A program made the position numbers and the translations under genes. From an uncultured bacterium (GTDB lineage Bacteria > Krumholzibacteriota > Krumholzibacteriia > LZORAL124-64-63), in contig CALEMW010000148.1 in NCBI GenBank assembly GCA_937910695.1, forward strand, positions 237 through 64,236: a DNA stretch of 64,000 bases, in the 5' to 3' direction. The notes under the pieces are model-generated. The model was not told the origin of the DNA and made no database searches. It saw nothing but the letters and a program-made list of their open reading frames with translations. Every line of letters starts with the position of its first letter. Position 1 is the first letter of the stretch. Positions 22,481-63,111 of the stretch are shown here, in pieces.

Positions 22481-23989
22481 TCAGACCAGTCCATACCTGC
22501 GAATCTTACGGTACAGGGTCCGTTCCGAAATGCCCAGACGTTCCGCAGCTTGACGCCTGCGGCCACCGGTCGCCCTCAAGGCAGCCTCGATCAGGGCCCG
22601 TTCAGCGCTTTGAAGGTCCCCGCCCTCGTGGATGGGTTCGGTGGAATAGCCGCTATCGCCTGCATAGGTATCAACGACCGAGCCGGACAACGTATCGCGC
22701 CAACCCTCGGCCCGCGGTTCTCCCAGAAGACGAGCCTTGATCTCTTTAACATCGTTGCGGAGCTCCCACAATGTCCTGGTGAGGATCTCCATGTCGAGAC
22801 CGTCGCGCAGCACCGTCCCCATCGGAACCGGAACATTGGGAGAGCTGCCCGTGTGGGCGACCGCTTCAATGATGTCGAGAGGCAGGTCGTCCACTTCGAT
22901 CATACCGCTCTGCTTCAAGACAACCAGCGAACTGATAACGTTGCGGAGTTCTCGAATGTTCCCCGGCCAGCGGTACTGTTCGAGCACACGGAGCGCCGGT
23001 TTGGAAAGTCCCCGTAGTTTCAGGCCGTGCCGTTTGTTCTCCTGGTCGAGGAACGTCTGGGACAGAACCAGCACATCCTCGATGCGGTCCCGCAGCGGCG
23101 GTGTGGGGATCACGACCACGCGCAGGCGGTAGTAGAGATCCTGGCGGAAGCGTCCGGAGTCAACGTCGGCGGCCAGATCGCGATGCGTGGCGGCCACGAG
23201 TCTGATATCGCTGTGCAGAGTCTCGGAGCCCCCGACGGGTGTGAACTCGCCCGTTTCCAGCGCCCTGAGAAAGCGGGTCTGCATGCCGAGGGGCATTTCG
23301 GCGACCTCATCGAGAAAAAGGGTGCCGCCGTCCGCACGCTGGAACACGCCTTCATGGCGTTGCACCGCCCCGGTGAATGCGCCCTTGGCATGGCCGAACA
23401 GTTCACTCTCGAGCACCCCCTCGCTCAGGGCGCCGCAGTTCACGCTGAGGAACGGACGGTCAGCACGAGAGGAGTGCTCATGGATCGCCTGGGCGACGAG
23501 CTCCTTCCCCGTGCCGCTTTCACCCAGGATCAAGACGTTGACGTCGAGAGGGGCCGCCTGGGCGATCAGGGCGATCATCTGCTGCACGGCCGACGAGCGG
23601 CCGGCGATGCCGCTGCGGGTGCGCACGCTGCGCAGACGAAGGAGGCGTTCCATGACGTTGCGCAGCTCTTCAGGGGACGCCGTCAGGTCCAGGCGGCGGA
23701 TGCGCCCGCGCCGCGGAATCTCGTTGCGGTCCGAAAGCACAGCCGGATCGCCGAGAACGATGAGGTCGGCGTCGCCCTTCATGGCTTGGAACGTGTCGAT
23801 GATATGACCGGTGTTCTGATAGCCGCTGGTATCGAACAGGAACAAAGCCCCGAGGCCGTCGGCAAATGCGGCCAGAGCTTCCGATGGCGACTCGTGGATA
23901 TAGAGATCCACGGCTGGCAGCTGCCAGTCGGCGAGAATTTTGTAGAGAGCGGGGTTACGGCCCAGAAGTACAACGAGATTCGAGTCCAC
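22481..23989 (-). CDS. Sigma54-dependent enhancer-binding protein with degenerate receiver-like N-terminus
   Basis: GESGTGKE, GAFTGA, LFLDE, FRQDLYYRL, WPGNIREL and a Fis-type HTH. Confidence 0.95.
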   Translation of the reverse strand: MDSNLVVLLGRNPALYKILADWQLPAVDLYIHESPSEALAAFADGLGALFLFDTSGYQNTGHIIDTFQAMKGDADLIVLGDPAVLSDRNEIPRRGRIRRLDLTASPEELRNVMERLLRLRSVRTRSGIAGRSSAVQQMIALIAQAAPLDVNVLILGESGTGKELVAQAIHEHSSRADRPFLSVNCGALSEGVLESELFGHAKGAFTGAVQRHEGVFQRADGGTLFLDEVAEMPLGMQTRFLRALETGEFTPVGGSETLHSDIRLVAATHRDLAADVDSGRFRQDLYYRLRVVVIPTPPLRDRIEDVLVLSQTFLDQENKRHGLKLRGLSKPALRVLEQYRWPGNIRELRNVISSLVVLKQSGMIEVDDLPLDIIEAVAHTGSSPNVPVPMGTVLRDGLDMEILTRTLWELRNDVKEIKARLLGEPRAEGWRDTLSGSVVDTYAGDSGYSTEPIHEGGDLQSAERALIEAALRATGGRRRQAAERLGISERTLYRKIRRYGLV

Positions 23990-24075: not shown

Positions 24076-24549
24076 TCAGTGGGTTGCGAGCAGGGAGTCT
24101 TCGGCGTGGGATTCGGACATGGGCGCTTCCTGACGAGCGACCTCTTCGAGTGTATCGGCGGCCCGCCGCAGACGAGTGAGGTAGACTGTCAGCTGGCGTT
24201 CGCTCAATACGGTACGGTTCCCGGCGCTGGGCGAGATGTTCGTCACGTCGGTCTGGCTCGATTCCGGCTCCGTAGGCCTCCGCGCCGCTTCCGCTTTGTA
24301 GGCATCGATGCCCTGGGGAACAGGTTTCGACTTTTGGGGCGATTCGGAAACCGGAGAGATCGTCGGCGCGGGGCCGCGGGCTTTACGCCGAAACCCGAGG
24401 GCAACCTTCAGCACGGTGATCGCCGGAATGCCTCGCCGCATCTGGGCCCAGAACGCCACCACCACGGCGGTCCCTCCCAGTGCCAGCAATACGGCCGTCA
24501 GCCAGGCCAAAGCTCCGTTTCCGTCCTGCAACATGCCGATGATATCCAT
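24076..24549 (-). CDS. Hypothetical single-pass membrane protein
   Basis: GGAGGA RBS; N-terminal TM segment, Pro/Ser-rich linker, and C-terminal helix YLTRLRRAADTLEEVA. Confidence 0.7.
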   Translation of the reverse strand: MDIIGMLQDGNGALAWLTAVLLALGGTAVVVAFWAQMRRGIPAITVLKVALGFRRKARGPAPTISPVSESPQKSKPVPQGIDAYKAEAARRPTEPESSQTDVTNISPSAGNRTVLSERQLTVYLTRLRRAADTLEEVARQEAPMSESHAEDSLLATH

Positions 24550-24569
24550 GATTCCTCCAGCCGCTTCGT

Positions 24570-24893
24570 TCACGCCTTGATGTCGAGCCGCAGTCCGATT
24601 TCTTCGCCGGATTCACTGCGTTGGTCCAGGTCGTTCCTCAACGCGGATTCGGCGTCCTCCGCTTCATGATGACTTGGGTGCCGTCGTCCGTCGTCCTTGT
24701 TCTTCTCCGGATCCACCTTGCTCTTCTGCGCTTCCTCGGTCTCGCGCACCTTCTCGACGCGGCTCTCCTTCTCCCCGGGCTTCTTGGCGTGCTCGGGGCC
24801 GGTGTTGTGCACCTGCTGGGCTTTGAGCTGCGTCCTGGCCACGCTTCCCATCTGCGCGATGGTCGTCTTGACCGCGAATCCGTCGCCGTTCAT
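24570..24893 (-). CDS. Hypothetical charged protein downstream of fliA
   Basis: RBS overlaps the fliA stop; highly charged; ends GLRLDIKA. Confidence 0.75.
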   Translation of the reverse strand: MNGDGFAVKTTIAQMGSVARTQLKAQQVHNTGPEHAKKPGEKESRVEKVRETEEAQKSKVDPEKNKDDGRRHPSHHEAEDAESALRNDLDQRSESGEEIGLRLDIKA

Positions 24894-24903
24894 GCCTCGC
24901 CTC

Positions 24904-25863
24904 CTATCCCAACCAGCGGACCGCCTCGAGCCAGGGTACCCTGAGATCGACGAGCACCTCGGCCAGAGGGATCAGCGACACGACGGCGAAACCCGCCATG
25001 AGATTGAGAGACTTGATGTCCAGTTCGTCCCGATTCGAAGCCTGCTTCTTGCGGGAGTCGCTCAGATCCTTCGAGAGGCGGCCGATGGTCTTCTTGCCGG
25101 CCGGCTGAAGCAATTTGCTCTTGAGCCGCATGACAGCCTTGGTGTGGATCTGGCAGACGCGGGATTCGGTCACGTCGAGGATGGCGCCGATCTCCTTGAG
25201 GGTCAGATCCTCATAGTAATAAAGGATCAGCACCAACTGCTCCTTCTCAGGCAGTTCCTCGAGTCCGCTCGCGATCAGCTGGATCATCTCCTGTGAGGAG
25301 ACCTTTTCCTCGATGTCTTCGGCTTTCGGATCAGGCAGGTAATCGCCGAGGGACGAGGAGTCGTCACCGTCTCCGGAGCTGTCCGCGTCGAGGGAGATGA
25401 TCGTGGCCACGGACACCTCATCGATCATCGTGCTGAGCTCGTTGCGGCTCAGTCCGAGCTCGGCGGCGAGTTCCTCGTCGGTGGCCGGACGACCGAAGCG
25501 GGCCTCGAGGTTCGTGTACGCCTCTTCGAGCTGGCGCGCCTTGCGGCGCAAAGAACGCGGGAACCAATCCTGCGATCGCAGCTCGTCGAGAATCGCACCC
25601 CTGATGCGCGGGATGGCGTAGGTTTCGAACTTGATGCCGCGGTCGGCGTCGAAGTTGTCGATGGCCTGGATCAACCCCAACAGACCGGCCGACACCAGGT
25701 CGCTTTGGTCCACGTAATGCGGAAGCCCGATGGCCATGCGGCCAGCCACGTATTTGACCACGCGCGCATAGATCTCCACCAGCTTCTGGCGGGCGTCCCA
25801 ATCGGCGTCGGCAGCGACGCGATCCCATAGTTCTCGGTGTGCGAGTGTATCCGTCTTCAGCAT
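24904..25863 (-). CDS. fliA: Flagellar sigma factor sigma28 (FliA/WhiG) with C-terminal extension
   Basis: FETYAIPRIRGAILDELR, DWFPRS and TESRVCQIH. Start set at MLKTD, downstream of a sigma54 motif. Confidence 0.96.
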   Translation of the reverse strand: MLKTDTLAHRELWDRVAADADWDARQKLVEIYARVVKYVAGRMAIGLPHYVDQSDLVSAGLLGLIQAIDNFDADRGIKFETYAIPRIRGAILDELRSQDWFPRSLRRKARQLEEAYTNLEARFGRPATDEELAAELGLSRNELSTMIDEVSVATIISLDADSSGDGDDSSSLGDYLPDPKAEDIEEKVSSQEMIQLIASGLEELPEKEQLVLILYYYEDLTLKEIGAILDVTESRVCQIHTKAVMRLKSKLLQPAGKKTIGRLSKDLSDSRKKQASNRDELDIKSLNLMAGFAVVSLIPLAEVLVDLRVPWLEAVRWLG

Positions 25864-25897
25864 TGGTCGCCTTTCCTGTTGGATGTTCGTCTGGTTC

Positions 25898-25913
25898 TGC
25901 ATGTTTCGTGCCA
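25898..25913 (-). promoter_or_regulatory. Sigma54 promoter upstream of fliA
   Basis: TGGCACGAAACATGCA (GG-N10-GC). Confidence 0.7.
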
Positions 25914-25928
25914 TGGTCGGCTGCTGAA

Positions 25929-26237: not shown

Positions 26238-27353
26238 TCAGACCTCCCTGGCCTTGGCCGACAGGCCCAGATGCCGTTCGGTCGTCTTCGCTTGACGCAC
26301 CAGAACCGATTCGACCAGCTGCGCCGATGAAGGGACGACGGGGCTCGGTCCCGGCCAGGGGCCGCGTCCAAGCAGAGAGACGGGGCACGGTGCGGCCATC
26401 AGCACATCGATGAGCTTGCCTTTGTGAGCAATCAGATCGAGACGTGTCGGGGCGATCCAGTCGCAGTTCCACTCCTTTGCCTGGAGCCAGCCCTGCCCGA
26501 TGACGCTCTGATCCGAGTCCAGGGGGACCGCGAGATGCCTGTGCATGTTTTCGTCCCCGGCGAGAATGACCTGTACGGCCGGGTCGGACATGAACGCCGT
26601 GCCGAGGGCGGGCGTGTCGATGATCACGGCGTCGTAGGATTTGAAGTGTTCGGCGGCGCGTACGATCTGATCGCCGCGGCGCAAAATCGCCGCATCGTAG
26701 CCATGCAGCCGCGACTCTTCCTGGAGCTGACGGACGTCTCCCTTGTGCCGTGGTCCAAGGGCCAGGATCAACACCCGTTGCCCGCGGGACCGCAGGGTCG
26801 CGGCTGTGCCCAAGACGAGGGTGGTCTTGCCTGATCCCGGACGTCCTAGCACGAGGTGGCGGCCCCCGATGGTTTCCCATGTGCCCCCGCTGGTGGGAAG
26901 AAGGCTCGCCAGATGCTGACGGGGCTCGGCCGCTCCGCCTTCGGCCCGCCATGTTCTGGCGATCTGTCGGACAGCGGGTCGAGAGACACCGGACAGCAGG
27001 AGTTCCCTGGTCAAGGGAAACGAATCCAGCAGCTCCGCGTCGGCGTCGACGTCGCGTCGGCGCCCACGGGTGATATCCTGGACGAGGGACTCGATGCGCG
27101 CGACCTCGACGGCGAGAGCCTCGGGCATGCCGGCCGGGCCGGAGTCATCAGCGGCGAAGCCGCTGTTCAGAGCGACCACGATTTCCACCAACCGCGTTTC
27201 GCCCAACCCTTCGATACTGCGCTCCTTCACCTCGCGGCTCTCGACGATCTGGGCGTTCGGTCCGTAACGCTTCTTCACGTTGGCCAAAGCCTCGTTGAGA
27301 GTGCGGCCGCGGATCGTCACGGTAGGCAGATCAACCGGTTGCTTGCTGAGCAT
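26238..27353 (-). CDS. flhF: FlhF-like SRP-family GTPase (degenerate motifs)
   Basis: N-terminal EALANVKKRYGPNAQIV, P-loop GRPGSGKTT, DTPA and TRLD; follows flhA. Confidence 0.85.
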   Translation of the reverse strand: MLSKQPVDLPTVTIRGRTLNEALANVKKRYGPNAQIVESREVKERSIEGLGETRLVEIVVALNSGFAADDSGPAGMPEALAVEVARIESLVQDITRGRRRDVDADAELLDSFPLTRELLLSGVSRPAVRQIARTWRAEGGAAEPRQHLASLLPTSGGTWETIGGRHLVLGRPGSGKTTLVLGTAATLRSRGQRVLILALGPRHKGDVRQLQEESRLHGYDAAILRRGDQIVRAAEHFKSYDAVIIDTPALGTAFMSDPAVQVILAGDENMHRHLAVPLDSDQSVIGQGWLQAKEWNCDWIAPTRLDLIAHKGKLIDVLMAAPCPVSLLGRGPWPGPSPVVPSSAQLVESVLVRQAKTTERHLGLSAKAREV

Positions 27354-48980: not shown

Positions 48981-50426
48981 TCAGCAACCGGCCTGTTCTT
49001 CGTCCGCCTGTTCGTACTGGCGCAATTTCTCCCGGAGCGTCTGACGGGAGATCCCCAGGATCCGGGCCGCCTTCGACTTGTTGTTCTCCGTCTTCTCCAG
49101 AGTGTAGAGAATCTGATGCCTCTCCACGTCGGCCAGCGACACGAGACCCGCTCCGGGGCCCGTCGGTGCATCGGAGCCCAGACGCGGATCCCGGCCTTCG
49201 GCGATGTGACGTGGGAAGAGGGAACTCGAGAGTTCCGACGGCTCCTCGAGAATCATGATGCGCTTGAGCACATTGCGCATTTCACGGACGTTCCCCGGCC
49301 AGGGGTAGCGCTGAAGAGTCTCGATCAGCGCTTGATCCGGAGCAGCGCACTCCAGGCCCAGTTTCTGGTTGAACTCCTGGACGAAGGCTGTGAGCAGCAC
49401 GCCGACGTCTTCGGGGCGCTCCCGAAGCGGCGGAATATTCACCTCGACCACCTGCAGTCGGTAATAGAGATCGTTGCGGAACAACCCCTCGCTGATGGCC
49501 TCCTCCAGCTCGCGGTTCGTGGCCGCGACGATACGGGCGTCGACACTCAGCTCATCCTTGCCCCCCACGCGACGGAAGCGGCGGTTCTCGATGACCCGCA
49601 GCAGTCGACTCTGGAGCAGAATGCCCATTTCGCCGATCTCATCAAGGAAGATGGTGCCGGTCCCGGCGACTTCGAACAGGCCCTCCTTGCGGGACTTGGC
49701 GTCGGTGAAGGCGCCTTTCTCGTGTCCCATGAGTTCGCTTTCCAGCAGCGTTTCCGGTACGGCAGCGCAGTTGATCTCCATGAACGGAGCGTTGGGCACG
49801 CCGCTCACTTCGTGGATGGCTCGGGCCACGATCTCCTTGCCGCTGCCGCTTTCACCACGGATCAGCACGGAGGTGTCGTTGCCGGCCCGGCTGGCGCCGA
49901 CCTTTTCCAGGAGATTGCGGATGGGCGTCAGGCCGGGGCAGGCGCGGATCATCTCCATGTAAGGCGTTGCGCTCGCGACGGCCGAGCGAACCGCACTGCG
50001 CTGTCGGGTGCGGGGACGTTCCGCCGGAGCTTCCTGTGCTGGCATGTCGATGTCGCCGGGACGCGTCGCCCGCAGCGCCGCACGGACCTGGCTGCGCATG
50101 GTGCCGAGCTTGAAGGGCTTTTGGATGAAGTCGTAGGCCCCGAGGCGCATGCTCTCCACGGCGGTGTCCACGTCACCGTAAGCCGTCATCATGATGATGG
50201 GAGTCTCCCTGCCCTGATTGCGCAGGGCCTGGAGGAGTTCGAGTCCTGAAACGCCTGGCATCTTCAGGTCGGTCACCACGAGATCGAAAGACTCGTTGTG
50301 GAGCATGGCGAGGGCGGCCTCCCCTGTCTCCGCCCCGGAGACTTCGTAGCCGTCTGTGCGCAGGGCTTCCTCCAGGGACTCCCTGATGGCAGCCTCGTCG
50401 TCGACGATCAGGATGCGTTCGCTCAT
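48981..50426 (-). CDS. Sigma54-dependent response regulator (FleR/FlgR/FlrC-like)
   Basis: Receiver with IVDDE, TDLKMP and KP; GESGSGKE, GAFTDA, WPGNVRE and an HTH. Confidence 0.95.
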   Translation of the reverse strand: MSERILIVDDEAAIRESLEEALRTDGYEVSGAETGEAALAMLHNESFDLVVTDLKMPGVSGLELLQALRNQGRETPIIMMTAYGDVDTAVESMRLGAYDFIQKPFKLGTMRSQVRAALRATRPGDIDMPAQEAPAERPRTRQRSAVRSAVASATPYMEMIRACPGLTPIRNLLEKVGASRAGNDTSVLIRGESGSGKEIVARAIHEVSGVPNAPFMEINCAAVPETLLESELMGHEKGAFTDAKSRKEGLFEVAGTGTIFLDEIGEMGILLQSRLLRVIENRRFRRVGGKDELSVDARIVAATNRELEEAISEGLFRNDLYYRLQVVEVNIPPLRERPEDVGVLLTAFVQEFNQKLGLECAAPDQALIETLQRYPWPGNVREMRNVLKRIMILEEPSELSSSLFPRHIAEGRDPRLGSDAPTGPGAGLVSLADVERHQILYTLEKTENNKSKAARILGISRQTLREKLRQYEQADEEQAGC

Positions 50427-52579
50427 GCTCTTTCCTCTTTCTCTCGATGGGTCCGGTCGCACGTTTCGGGCAGCAGGACGGAGAACACCGTCTCGGCTCC
50501 CTGACGTTCAGCCCGCAGATTCCCCCCGTGGGCCTCGACGATTTTCAAACAGATGGGCAGTCCGAGCCCGGTACCGGCGCTCTTGGTGGTGAAGAAGGGA
50601 CGGAAGAGGGACTCCGGTGGCGTGGCGCCGAAACCGGCTCCCCGATCCGCCACGCGCAGATGAAGGCCCGGGCGGCGCTGACGCAGTCCGGTGGCGTCGT
50701 CCTCGAATTCCAGGGTCCGCTGACGTCGCACCGTGATCGCCACGGTGCCGCCGCTGGGCGACGCGTCGACGGCGTTGAACAGGAGGTTCAGGGCCACCTG
50801 CTTGAGCAGGGCCCCATCGCACTCCCACGATCGGGCGTCGGGATCCAGGTCGAGAGCGAACGACAGACCTTTCTCCTGCGCCCGCGGCCGGGTCAGCTCC
50901 ACGGAATCGCGCAGGAGTCGGTCCAGATCGCAATCGGACCGACGCGGTTCACAGGGCCTCACGAACTGGAGCATGCGGGTGATCGTCTCGTTGATCCGAT
51001 CCACTTCGCTGGTGATCACATCGATATAGCGACGTCGAGGGTCCTGCTGGTCGAGATGGTCGGCCAGGAGCTCGGCTTGGGCGCTCAGCCCCATCAGGGG
51101 ATTGCGGATCTCGTGGGCCAGCGTGGCGGACATCTCCACCATGCTCTGCAGGCTGTCCGCCCGCAGGCGTTCGGCCGCCAGCTTCTTGGTTTCGCGCAGA
51201 TCCTCGAGCACGACCACGAGCCAGCGTTCGTCCTGGCCGCGGCCCTGCATCTGCGACGACGTCACCAGCACGGGTATCGCGATATCGCCCCGGTGGACCA
51301 TCCCCTCCCCCTGAAAATGCCCTGCAGGTGCCGAGCCGAGGGTGACGAAGGGCAGAGCCTCGCCGTCGCCCAGCTTCAACAACCCGTCGAGAAAGAGTTC
51401 GGAGAGGTCTTCGGGAGCAAAGGACTCGCGTCGAAAGAATTCGGCGCCGGCACGGCTTTGGGCGGCGCTGCGACCGCGTCCCACACCGAGCCGCGGTTCG
51501 GTTTGGAGCGCCGGTTCATGGGCCCGGCCGGACAGCATCTCCCGCGCGATCCTGTTGCAGTAGATGGTGCGCGCCTGCTCGTCCACGACCCAGATGCCGC
51601 TCTGAACGGTCTCGAGAACCCGGGCGTTGAAGATGCTCAGTTCGCGCATGCGATCGAGCATCTGGGCCGCAGCCACCTCTTCGGAGAGGATGACCTGAAC
51701 GGCACGCAGGAATGCCTGGAGATCACCGGATGTCTCATCATCGTCGAGACCCAGCAACAGCAGATACCCGAAACCGATGCCCATGTGTTCCAGGGGCATG
51801 GCCGTCACCCTGCGTGAGGCGTCGGACGAAAGCTGGAAGACTTCGGCGTCCTGGTCGCGACGACGGGCGGCGTGCGCTTCCTCGAGATGGAGCAGAACTC
51901 GGTCCCAGGGCGAATCGTCCCACTGCCAGGTCTGCCGCGGCGCGAACGGGGCGTCCGGGGCTGGACGCAGCACGAGGGCGGCACCGTCGGCGCCCACGAA
52001 TCCCGAGAGGTTTTCGAGCAGTCGGGCCAGGGTGTCGTCCCAGTTGCGGGCCGTGCTCAGTTCTCGGCCGAACTGGTAGAGCAACGACAACTGCTGCGTG
52101 TGGCGCGTGAGTTCGCTGTGAGCGCGGGCGAGATCCTCGCCGGTGGCGTCCAGCTGCCTCTGAAGATCGAGGCGGTGACGGCGAAGCCGATCGGTGTTTG
52201 TCGCATGTTCACGGGCGAGGTCCTGCCTGGCGCGCAAGGCCTCGAAGCGTTCGGCCAACCGATCCCTCAGAGCGAGCCAGGCGGCATGGCTGGCGTCCAT
52301 GGCGAGCAGGTCGGAGGCTCCAGCACGAACGGCGGCCACGAGCAGGTCCTCCGAAGTGCCGTCATGGAGCAACACGACAATCTCGCCGCTGCGGCGAGCG
52401 TCGCGCATGACCATCAACGCCTCATCAGGATCGCCATCCACGATCACCAGCATGGCGCCGATCTCGACAGGCAGCGCAGCCTCGACGATCCCGGACATCG
52501 TTTGCAAACGTCCAGAACGCCAAAGCCGTGTCGGATGCGGCCATTCGAGATCATTGGGAAGAGAATCACGGGTGGACAT
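50423..52579 (-). CDS. Cytoplasmic sensor histidine kinase (pseudo-receiver/GAF/PAS-like, HisKA, HATPase)
   Basis: LAHEIRNPL, NLLFNA, DRGAG and PFFTTK..GTGLGL; no TM helix; ATGA-coupled to the regulator. Confidence 0.93.
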   Translation of the reverse strand: MSTRDSLPNDLEWPHPTRLWRSGRLQTMSGIVEAALPVEIGAMLVIVDGDPDEALMVMRDARRSGEIVVLLHDGTSEDLLVAAVRAGASDLLAMDASHAAWLALRDRLAERFEALRARQDLAREHATNTDRLRRHRLDLQRQLDATGEDLARAHSELTRHTQQLSLLYQFGRELSTARNWDDTLARLLENLSGFVGADGAALVLRPAPDAPFAPRQTWQWDDSPWDRVLLHLEEAHAARRRDQDAEVFQLSSDASRRVTAMPLEHMGIGFGYLLLLGLDDDETSGDLQAFLRAVQVILSEEVAAAQMLDRMRELSIFNARVLETVQSGIWVVDEQARTIYCNRIAREMLSGRAHEPALQTEPRLGVGRGRSAAQSRAGAEFFRRESFAPEDLSELFLDGLLKLGDGEALPFVTLGSAPAGHFQGEGMVHRGDIAIPVLVTSSQMQGRGQDERWLVVVLEDLRETKKLAAERLRADSLQSMVEMSATLAHEIRNPLMGLSAQAELLADHLDQQDPRRRYIDVITSEVDRINETITRMLQFVRPCEPRRSDCDLDRLLRDSVELTRPRAQEKGLSFALDLDPDARSWECDGALLKQVALNLLFNAVDASPSGGTVAITVRRQRTLEFEDDATGLRQRRPGLHLRVADRGAGFGATPPESLFRPFFTTKSAGTGLGLPICLKIVEAHGGNLRAERQGAETVFSVLLPETCDRTHREKEERA

Positions 52580-52720: not shown

Positions 52721-53095
52721 CTAGCTGACGAAGAGGTCGAGGATCTTCATCACCCGAGCGAGGCTCTCGGCAACCTGTTCGCGAACCATTGCTGTATCGT
52801 AATCCCCGTTCAACAGGCGTTCGCGGACTTCGTCAATGCGCTGTTGCCTCAGATCGGGTTCCTTGGCCACCGCGGCCTCTCCGGCCTTGAGCGTCTCGTT
52901 CAGGCGCTCATACCGCTCTGCGAGGTCGGAACGCTCGAAGCGTTCGCCCTGAACCTCGAGGTTCTGGGTCACGGTCTCCTGAGTGGGCGTCGTCCCGCTA
53001 TCCTTGACCTGGCCTTTATCCTGGGACTGCTGAGTCCGCTGGAACTGAGCCAAGGCCTGCTGGCGTAACGAGAGATCGATTTTGTTGGTCGCCAT
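52721..53095 (-). CDS. flgM: Anti-sigma28 factor FlgM
   Basis: PDLRQQRIDEVRERLLNGDY motif; sigma28 promoter upstream. Confidence 0.82.
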   Translation of the reverse strand: MATNKIDLSLRQQALAQFQRTQQSQDKGQVKDSGTTPTQETVTQNLEVQGERFERSDLAERYERLNETLKAGEAAVAKEPDLRQQRIDEVRERLLNGDYDTAMVREQVAESLARVMKILDLFVS

Positions 53096-53499: not shown

Positions 53500-53527
53500 T
53501 CAAGTTCGCGGCGCTGCAGTCCGATAA
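53500..53527 (+). promoter_or_regulatory. Sigma28 promoter for flagellin
   Basis: TCAAG-N15-TCCGATAA, preceded by an A-rich UP-element-like tract. Confidence 0.8.
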
Positions 53528-53637: not shown

Positions 53638-54459
53638 ATGGCCCTGAGGATCAACACCAACGTCGCGTCCCTGAACGCGCAGCGCAACCTGAACAAGAGC
53701 ACGAGCATGCTGAACAAGTCGCTCGAACGCTTGAGTTCCGGTCTGCGCATCAACCGCGCCGCCGACGACGCCGCCGGTCTGGCAATCTCCGAGTCCATGA
53801 AGGCCGACATCCGGGCTCTCGAGCAGTCCGGCCGGAACGCTGCCGACGGCGTATCCATGGTGCAGCTGGCGGAAGGCGCCCTCGATGAAGTGTCGGGGAT
53901 CCTGATCCGCATGCGTGAACTGGCCCAACAGGCTGGTAACGGAACCATGGGTGCCACCGAGCGTGGATACATCGATGACGAGTTCGATGCTCTGTCTCTG
54001 GAGATCAACCGGATCAGCGACGCTGCCGAGTTCAACGGCATCAAGCTGCTCAATGGCGTTGGCGCTACCAGCGATATTCTCGTCGGTACCAGTGCCACCG
54101 ACACGATCACGGTCAATCTCGCAAACGATGCTGATACGACCGGTCTCGGCATCAATGCGGTCGATCTGACGACGGCTGCGACTGCACAGGCCGCCATGGC
54201 TACCATCGATACTGCGATCGGTACCCTCAGTGGCTGGCGCGCCGATTTCGGTGTGACCCAGAACCGGCTCGAGTCGGCCATGCGCTCGATCGACAACTCG
54301 ATCGAGAACATCTCGGCCGCGAACAGCCGTATCCGCGATGTGGACATCGCCGCCGAAACGAGCCGTATGACCAGCAGCCAGATCCTGCAGCAGGCTGGCG
54401 TGTCGGTGCTCGCACAGGCGAACATGTCGCCGCAGATGGCGTTGAACCTGCTCCAGTAG
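53638..54459 (+). CDS. fliC: Flagellin (273 aa, minimal)
   Basis: LRINTNVASLNAQR, RLSSGLRINRAADDAAG and SRIRDVD...ILQQAG. Confidence 0.99.
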   Translation: MALRINTNVASLNAQRNLNKSTSMLNKSLERLSSGLRINRAADDAAGLAISESMKADIRALEQSGRNAADGVSMVQLAEGALDEVSGILIRMRELAQQAGNGTMGATERGYIDDEFDALSLEINRISDAAEFNGIKLLNGVGATSDILVGTSATDTITVNLANDADTTGLGINAVDLTTAATAQAAMATIDTAIGTLSGWRADFGVTQNRLESAMRSIDNSIENISAANSRIRDVDIAAETSRMTSSQILQQAGVSVLAQANMSPQMALNLLQ

Positions 54460-61997: not shown

Positions 61998-63111
61998 CTA
62001 CATGATCACGAGTTCAGCCTGCAGGGCCCCGGCCACCTTGAGGGCCTGGAGAATCGCCACGATGTCACGGGGACTCGCACCCACTTCGTTCAGCACGGCC
62101 ACGACGTCGGAAACGGTGCCGGAGTCGGGTACATGAATGACCGAAGCTTCCTTCTCCTCCACGTCGGTGATCACCGAAGGCGTGACGATTGTGCGGCCGC
62201 TCTCGTTGAACGAATTCGGCTGCGATACGTCATAGCTGGTCTTGATGATGACTTTGAGATTGCCGTGAGCGACCGCGGCCTCATGCAGCCTGACCCCGGC
62301 ACCCGCAATGATGGTGCCCGTGCGCTCGTTGATGATCACCTTGGCCGTCTGGTCCGCCTCAGCTGACAACTCGCCCATACGCGCGATGAAGTCGACGGGC
62401 TGGGAGAAGAACGCTTCCGGTACGTTCACTTCGATGCGTTGGGCGTCCATTGCCCGGGCTGTGCCGCCGCCGAAGACCATGTTGATGGCGTTGGTGACCC
62501 GCTGAGCGGTCGTAAAATCAGGGTTGTGCAGCAGCCAGGCCATGGTGCCGTCGCGGACCATGCTGCCCGGTCCACGGGTGGTCACCTTGCCGCCGTTGGG
62601 AATGCGGCCGACCGTTGAATGGTTCTTGCGGATCGAGTTGTTGGCCCCGCCGCTGATGTTGAAGCCCCCGATGGACACGGCCCCCTGAGCAACCACGTAG
62701 ACGTTGCCGTCGGTGCCTTTCATGGGCGCCATGATCAGTTCGCCGCCCTCGAGACTCGAAGCGTCACCCAAGGACGACACCTTCACGTCCAGGCGGCTGC
62801 CTGGCGCCGAATGGGGACAGTTCCGAGGTGATCAGCACCGCGGCGACGTTCTTCAACTTGATCTGGGTCTGATCCACCGTCACACCGAGCCGCTCCAACA
62901 TGGAGGTGAGCGAGGCCACGGTATAGGCGGAGCTCTGTCCGTCGCCGGTTCCGTTCAATCCCACGACCAGGCCGTAGCCCAGCAGCGGTTCGGTGGACTG
63001 TCCGTCGAGCATGGCCAGGTCCTTGATGCGCGAGAACGATGCGTCGACACCCGACGCAGTCACGACCACGAACATCAATCCGAGCAGCAGAATGCGTTTC
63101 CACATGGTCAT
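61998..63111 (-). pseudogene. flgI: P-ring protein FlgI, split by a frameshift near 62802-62808
   Basis: The N-part (RIKDL, GYGLVVGLNGTGD, KNVAAV) and the C-part (GSRLDVKVSSLGDASSLEGG...AGALQAEL) lie in different frames. Confidence 0.88.

Follow-up and report, generated by a model that had tools for sequence, protein, structure and literature searches.

A conserved, lineage-specific C-terminal tail with a hydrophobic helix on the sigma-28 factor FliA in a family of Krumholzibacteriota

Why does a flagellar sigma factor carry a long C-terminal tail with a hydrophobic helix close to its end? The question is raised by the fliA gene in a stretch of 64,000 nucleotides from contig CALEMW010000148.1, which belongs to an uncultured bacterium of the phylum Krumholzibacteriota; this whole stretch of analysed DNA is called the window below. 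FliA is sigma-28, and to our knowledge the sigma-28 proteins that have been studied are all soluble and are controlled through secretion of the anti-sigma factor FlgM. An earlier reading of the window (the original prediction) held that the open reading frame (ORF) of fliA runs about 68 amino acids (aa) past sigma region 4, with a charged linker and a hydrophobic run, and saw in this addition a possible membrane anchor and a layer of control on top of FlgM. The ORF does continue as described, through residues 269–336, with the hydrophobic run LNLMAGFAVVSLIPLAEVLV at residues 303–322. We found this tail to be real, conserved and lineage-specific, and our comparisons show it, as far as sequence can tell, to be under selection and in frame with the sigma core.

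By its domains, the window protein is a complete member of the FliA/WhiG sigma-28 family. Pfam models place sigma-70 region 2 at residues 45–117, region 3 at 125–202 and region 4 at 218–265 (PF04542, E-value 3.5e-18; PF04539, 1e-09; PF04545, 8.2e-23), and the NCBIfam model TIGR02479 (FliA_WhiG) spans residues 45–268 at 269.7 bits, against a cut-off of 189.6. Region 4 closes with ESRVCQIHTKAVMRLKSKL, after which the charged stretch begins. Residues are counted here from the first ATG; the start picked by gene callers in public collections is M18 at 25863, which yields an otherwise identical protein of 319 aa (P0001), and M18 is the likely start of fliA. Solved sigma-28 chains (6pfv, 6pmi, 9wsf and 1rp3) align with the window FliA as far as residues 268–271; among the structures matched, 6pfv and 6pfj are WhiG, 6pmi is the Escherichia coli FliA holoenzyme and 1rp3 is the FliA-FlgM complex. 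These chains stop 1–11 residues past the end of the alignment, in agreement with the claim that FliA proteins end soon after region 4, whereas the window FliA runs on for 68 residues, as a leash followed by a hydrophobic helix. The tail (24907–25110) lies past the end of every sigma model, and residues 269–336 matched no Pfam family, even at E<=5. A literature search at the level of titles and abstract openings found no published description of such a sigma-28 tail, and the added part appears to be a feature without counterpart in solved or described sigma-28 proteins.

The original prediction had argued against accidental read-through from GC-rich third codon positions and from a stop codon abutting the next ribosome-binding site, and both observations stand. 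Across codon positions 1, 2 and 3, the fraction of guanine and cytosine (GC) runs 0.65/0.40/0.82 for the tail, matching the 0.64/0.38/0.80 of the core. The fliA stop overlaps an AGGAGG motif that sits ten bases ahead of the ATG (24893) of the next gene, d107, and this overlap suggests that fliA and d107 are translationally coupled. Contigs from three other studies (X5, X6, X7) span 24904–25110 with zero differing letters and zero indels; a fourth contig (X12), which covers part of the interval, is likewise unchanged. Two sequencing runs labelled RNA contain only small shares of the window (0.24 and 0.07). The unchanged sequence in independent contigs, together with the family-wide conservation described below, bears out the claim that the tail is not a read-through product.

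For close comparison we used 25 genomes of the window's family and seven FliA proteins from the sister families f2, f4, f5 and f6. The three-part tail described below is common to 24 FliA among the 25 family genomes, and the FliA of G008 stops where the helix begins; the seven sister-family proteins have a short basic extension at most, without the hydrophobic run. A tail profile (A2), built from 24 sequences and searched across 208 genomes of the phylum, matched 88 of them, all in the window's own family: the genome of the window and 87 of the 90 other family genomes, from 28 genera. The same profile matched 0 of the 117 genomes in the other eight families of the phylum, and the three unmatched genomes of the family are 75–85% complete. 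Of the 88 matching genomes, 83 have an intact helix. Seven profile matches end before profile position 58; among them G017 and G160 keep a divergent helix, G008 (L019/L044) and G136 (L045) have a truncated one, and in G170 (L046), G116 (L047) and G135 (L049) the helix is frameshifted, which in G116 fuses fliA to d107. These five truncations and frameshifts may be real losses or assembly errors. The ratio of nonsynonymous to synonymous substitution rates (dN/dS) over six pairs is 0.30–1.15 for the tail versus 0.12–0.39 for the core, with the tail near 1 in two of the six, and its use is limited because synonymous sites are almost saturated. In a search of 1.84 billion representative proteins, the tail profile matched 17, of which 15 are fragments or chimeras of C-termini from this FliA family and two (P0131, P0134) are repeat artefacts; since the matches are confined to these, the tail is not a shared domain, and borrowing from other proteins is excluded. 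A look-up of the tail in the ESM Atlas gave no lead (best score 0.76). On this distribution, the tail is by all appearances a single innovation spanning the whole family.

Three parts make up the tail (Table 1). A basic segment comes first, next a charged linker whose length varies, and then a hydrophobic helix of 20 residues, which is followed by a short end rich in Gly and Pro. The statistics that follow rest on the best 120 FliA homologues listed, which are 57–100% identical to the window FliA, and the position-wise counts for the helix on 117–118 of them. The first 20 residues of the basic segment carry a mean net charge of +2.3, and a weaker form of this segment occurs in the sister families. 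The helix starts 24–49 residues (median 38) past region 4 and follows the family pattern V-N/D-V-M-A-G/C-L-A-L-(P/C)-(P/Q)-L-x-x-L-L/A-x-x-L-x, in which position 2 is Asn or Asp in 116 of 118 homologues and position 5 is Ala in 114 of 118; the helix contains many small residues (A, G, C, S). The helix start (V-N-V-M-A) is conserved and the extreme C-terminus is not. The window FliA finishes with VPWLEAVRWLG, so the amphipathic end PWLEAVRWLG that had been pointed out earlier is indeed there, and it turned out to be limited to the window's own genus (L001, L002). The hydropathy of FliA as a whole shows a single peak, at residue 304, and no N-terminal signal.

Is this helix a membrane anchor, or does it dock on another protein? 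We scored hydropathy on the Kyte-Doolittle scale, with a 19-residue window, and on the Wimley-White octanol scale, and used as a yardstick the real membrane helices encoded in the same window and a set of soluble proteins. On the first scale the helix scores 1.94, level with the weakest real membrane helices (MotB 1.98, MotA 1.96, FlhB 1.91) and just above the soluble maximum (real membrane helices 1.9–3.0, soluble proteins up to 1.77). Across the homologues, the Kyte-Doolittle value is at least 1.24 in 119 of 120 tails and at least 1.6 in 74, and the Wimley-White score exceeds 0 in 118. The most hydrophobic 19-residue stretch is uncharged in 66 of the 120 and is followed by 0–13 residues, and the helix is 20 residues long. 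Like C-tail-anchored membrane proteins, FliA has a single hydrophobic segment, at most about 35 residues from the C-terminus, lacks an N-terminal signal and is predicted to have the bulk of the protein in the cytoplasm; unlike them, it has a helix at or below the hydrophobicity edge of the membrane helices of its own genome. We know of no described sigma factor of the tail-anchored kind. ElaB-type tail-anchored proteins (DUF883), sought in the window's own genome as a calibration, gave no match.

The hydropathy and conservation profiles, taken column by column, both peak at 100–110 degrees. The conserved hydrophobic face is made up of positions 5, 9, 12, 16 and 19, and such helical periodicity with one conserved face indicates a specific partner on that face, be it a membrane helix or a groove on a protein. 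The small residues, together with a position 2 that is almost always Asn or Asp and a position 5 that is almost always Ala, would fit helix-helix packing in a membrane. The helix appears to stand alone, outside any globular domain, behind a charged linker of variable length that looks disordered. Several observations count against a membrane anchor. On the octanol scale the window helix reaches +3.4, versus 7.6–13.4 for real membrane helices and up to 4.55 for soluble proteins. The tail helix is less hydrophobic than the helix of the upstream neighbour u101 in 18 of 19 genomes; compared over 10 genomes with the helix of the downstream neighbour d165, it is the less hydrophobic of the two in nine on the Kyte-Doolittle scale and in six on the Wimley-White scale. 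The variable face (positions 11, 14, 17, 18 and 21) has a semi-polar make-up (P, Q, S, T, K) unlike that of a lipid-facing surface, in one subclade (23 of 117) helix positions 10–11 are Pro-Pro and position 14 is Lys, and the 15 residues ahead of the helix have a mean net charge of −0.47 and so are not net positive. To these must be added the five of 88 genomes in which the helix is truncated or frameshifted, and the fact that a neighbour co-varying with the tail is excluded, in that genes like u101, d107 and d165 flank short fliA genes too. One conserved and one semi-polar face fits partner docking at least as well as a lipid-exposed anchor, and the evidence shifts weight somewhat from a plain anchor towards a helix with a partner. 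The proposed membrane anchor thus held up in its position, which follows a long charged linker and leaves 0–13 residues to the C-terminus, and was weakened by its marginal hydrophobicity and semi-polar face. An amphipathic membrane-targeting helix of the MinD/FlhG/FtsA type is about 8–15 residues long and has a basic face; that type is ruled out here by the 20-residue length, the absence of charge in 66 of 120 tails and a face that is semi-polar and not basic.

What, then, could the tail do? We infer for it a membrane location, a partner and a regulatory effect. Our preferred account, in which our confidence falls just short of even, is that the tail works as a leash and keeps sigma-28 at the membrane, either alone or packed against a membrane partner. 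The basic segment and a flexible charged linker of 24–49 residues would end in the 20-residue hydrophobic helix, and the helix would sit in the cytoplasmic membrane, as a weak C-terminal tail anchor or packed on a membrane protein of the flagellar apparatus. The obvious candidate for such a partner is the FlgV-like two-helix protein u101, encoded just upstream of fliA. Sigma-28 with its bound FlgM would thereby be kept beside the export gate that secretes FlgM, and a spatial layer would be added to the usual FlgM checkpoint. A stronger version, which we regard as distinctly improbable, makes FliA a true tail-anchored protein that packs on the FlgV-like protein in the basal body and, when assembly has finished, is freed as that contact is lost or the helix is cut within the membrane, so that a second, membrane-based checkpoint beside FlgM secretion would gate late flagellar transcription; the conserved Asn/Asp at the helix start and the helix-breaking Pro-Pro or Cys-Gln in mid-helix would belong to that version. 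A site-2 protease gene is present in the window's own genome, and likewise in 14 of 14 control genomes, which makes its presence uninformative. Release by proteolysis and a localised transcription of flagellin, both raised by the original prediction, are speculative.

The main rival to a membrane leash has the helix dock in trans on a protein surface in the cytoplasm (FlgM, a chaperone or the FlhA ring, for instance) and make delivery of FlgM to the gate more efficient; we hold this to be unlikely, though it deserves serious weight. FliA is itself described as the export chaperone of FlgM, and the other flagellar export chaperones FlgN, FliS and FliT as docking on FlhA (PMC8527033). Docking would also agree with the 100–110 degree periodicity, which leaves one hydrophobic stripe and one semi-polar face, and with a hydrophobicity that is only marginally of membrane type. 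Against it, the 20-residue segment, uncharged in more than half of the homologues (66/120), is greasier than most docking peptides, and the tail profile is unlike FlgM (hhalign probability 0.08%). Rather improbable, too, is a helix that works in cis, folding onto the core-binding surfaces of sigma regions 2 or 4 until a signal displaces it, an idea modelled by analogy on anti-sigma factors and on some C-terminal extensions of extracytoplasmic function (ECF) sigma factors. A conserved hydrophobic face on a long flexible leash is what speaks for such autoinhibition, and C-terminal extensions are described as recognised regulators of ECF sigma factors (PMC7826278). Against this stand the retention of FlgM, which means that an inhibitor is already present, and a tail without sequence likeness to FlgM.

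Exposed non-polar C-termini are known degradation signals, and the tail could conceivably deliver sigma-28 to a protease of the FtsH or Lon type and so keep its level low. Selection is more relaxed on the tail than on the core, as this would have it; yet it is the extreme C-terminus that is unconserved and the helix start V-N-V-M-A that is conserved, and a 20-residue helix behind a linker of 24–49 residues far exceeds what a degradation signal needs, so we rate a turnover signal as highly improbable. That the tail is an accident, i.e. read-through, an assembly error or a functionless neutral appendage, is close to refuted. The five damaged helices and a dN/dS near 1 in two of six pairs are in its favour, whereas the frame stays open across 28 genera, 83 of 88 genomes keep the helix whole, three other studies yielded contigs with identical DNA, the codon-position GC of the tail equals that of the core, and conservation is position-specific with helical periodicity.

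How does a membrane leash, or any other function of the tail, relate to FlgM? With the FlgM model PF04316, whose cut-off is 25 bits, the genome scan gave 25.9 bits and the ORF itself 24.0, a borderline score for the window organism. Of 24 other family genomes, 23 have an FlgM homologue, and FlgM also occurs in sister families whose FliA is short. Since FlgM is retained in both settings, the tail does not replace it, and any control by the tail would come in addition, as the original prediction had supposed. An FlgM-like anti-sigma domain fused to FliA in cis was considered and rejected on the hhalign comparison with the FlgM profile given above. The organism thus shares with canonical systems (FliA/SigD/WhiG with FlgM) both the sigma regions 2, 3 and 4 and the flgM gene. 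A candidate sigma-28 promoter, TCAAGTTC-N12-TCCGATAA, lies at 53500–53527 on the plus strand, about 110 bases upstream of the flagellin gene (53638–54459), and resembles the sigma-28 consensus. A strict pattern for this consensus has 0 matches in the window, and a relaxed one is not enriched genome-wide (2 matches versus 4 for the control). Genes for sigma-54 activators, at 22481–23989 and 48981–52579 (both on the minus strand), flank the flagellar cluster, and one of the two has a receiver domain and adjoins a histidine kinase; their position suggests a sigma-54 tier above sigma-28.

Table 1. Coordinates of fliA, of the parts of its product and of the neighbouring and regulatory genes in the window
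Feature	Position	Strand	Description
fliA (sigma-28, FliA/WhiG)	24904..25914	minus	336 aa counted from first ATG; stop TAG 24904-24906
Canonical sigma-28 core, residues 45-268	25111..25782	minus	Regions 2, 3, 4; TIGR02479, Pfam, solved chains
Basic segment, residues 269-291	25042..25110	minus	Family consensus IxRHEGKxSIGRLTxEIRxR
Variable charged linker, residues 292-302	25009..25041	minus	E-, A-, P-, K-, R-rich
Hydrophobic helix LNLMAGFAVVSLIPLAEVLV, residues 303-322	24949..25008	minus	Hydropathy, family alignment
C-terminal end, residues 323-336	24907..24948	minus	Gly/Pro-rich, 0-13 residues (median 9) in 120 homologues
fliA stop overlapping Shine-Dalgarno sequence TAGGAGGCGAGGC of d107	24894..24906	minus	AGGAGG overlaps TAG
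u101, 101 aa	25929..26234	minus	Two membrane helices, polar Lys/Glu-rich tail; between flhF and fliA
d107	24570..24893	minus	Highly charged small protein; directly after fliA, conserved
d165	24076..24573	minus	N-terminal membrane helix and conserved C-terminal helix; start overlaps d107 stop
flgM (anti-sigma-28)	52721..53095	minus	PF04316

The genes around fliA bear on the search for a partner. The minus strand of the window carries a long flagellar operon (flgB, flgC, fliE, fliF, fliG, fliH, fliI, fliK, flgD, flgE, motA, motB, fliL, fliM, fliN, fliP, fliQ, fliR, flhB, flhA, flhF, u101, fliA), which fliA closes, at the end of the flhA-flhF part; d107, d165 and then a sigma-54 activator follow. 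In many bacteria the slot between flhF and fliA holds flhG, and here it is taken by u101, which is conserved in the window's own genome and in 23 of 24 other family genomes and matched no Pfam family. In the product of d107 both ends are conserved, the N-terminus as GDG-V/F-S...AQ-M/L-G-x-VA-K/R-TQ and the C-terminal part as ...D-L/T-K/R-A; the protein is found in families f1, f5 and f6, and yielded no match in the Protein Data Bank by profile and no consistent Pfam family. In d165, the N-terminal membrane helix is followed by a Pro/Ala-rich linker and the conserved helix LxxLLxRLRRAxDxLE, and a look-up in the ESM Atlas gave no lead (best score 0.76, TM-scores of 0.37 or less). Its place after the sigma-28 gene parallels that of swrB after sigD in Bacillus subtilis. 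SwrB is described as monotopic (PMC4526659). The family conserves u101, d107 and d165 around its fliA, and similar genes also flank the short-tailed fliA of f5 and f6; single-protein searches had suggested that the three are family-specific, a view overturned by these look-alikes at the sister-family loci. For an origin of the tail as a fusion with, or a duplicate of, a neighbour there was no sign, with hhalign probabilities of 1.8% against u101 and 0.09% against d165. Two further observations concern the operon itself. FlhF (26238–27353, minus strand) matches the SRP54 GTPase model weakly (26.4 bits, cut-off 22.7, E 6.4e-06), and flgI (61998–63111, minus strand) appears split, with one ORF (62764–63111) covering FlgI profile positions 1–76 and an overlapping one (61998–62786) covering positions 85–343, which may reflect a frameshift or an assembly error.

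Related systems offer partial parallels to a membrane-held FliA. ToxR and CadC are membrane-anchored transcription regulators, and other tethered factors are released by intramembrane proteolysis; the shared idea is a DNA-directed regulator that works or is stored at the membrane, and the differences are that none of these is a sigma factor and that FliA shows no sign of cleavage. Among sigma factors, the ECF group comes closest. Besides carrying regulatory C-terminal extensions in some cases, it includes ECF263, which is described as having five or seven predicted membrane helices (PMC7826278). As in those proteins, FliA has an extra C-terminal part, to which a regulatory role is ascribed in ECF factors; ECF263 itself, as a whole sigma factor, is predicted to be membrane-integral. 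ECF factors, however, belong to group 4 and lack region 3, whereas the window FliA is a group 3 factor that has just one, marginal helix and whose anti-sigma factor is a protein of its own. That the window FliA could itself be an ECF factor with an extension is ruled out by the presence of region 3, the pass against the FliA model and the absence of a Pfam match in the tail.

The closest parallel for the proposed partner is FlgV, described as a two-helix basal-body protein whose second helix has a conserved basic residue and is followed by a polar tail; its gene is reported to lie between the flhF/flhG sub-module and the sigma-28 sub-module, and its authors propose a possible tethering of factors to the flagellar apparatus (PMC11607428). 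The window's u101 shares with this description the two helices, a basic residue where helix 2 starts (in 19 of 19 family loci), the polar tail and the slot between flhF and fliA. The likeness is one of architecture and position, and u101-like genes also precede short fliA genes. A contact between u101 and the FliA tail is put forward here as a proposal.

If the leash reading is true, retention of sigma-28 at the membrane or the export apparatus would couple gene expression to the assembly of a machine in a new way, and FliA of this family would be the first sigma factor other than the ECF factors to be held at a membrane. The tail marks the whole family (88 of the 91 family genomes searched, in 28 genera), and so wide a spread argues that it is an evolved solution rather than an oddity of a single genome. 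The widespread FlgV-type proteins that are encoded beside fliA may also gain a function from it.

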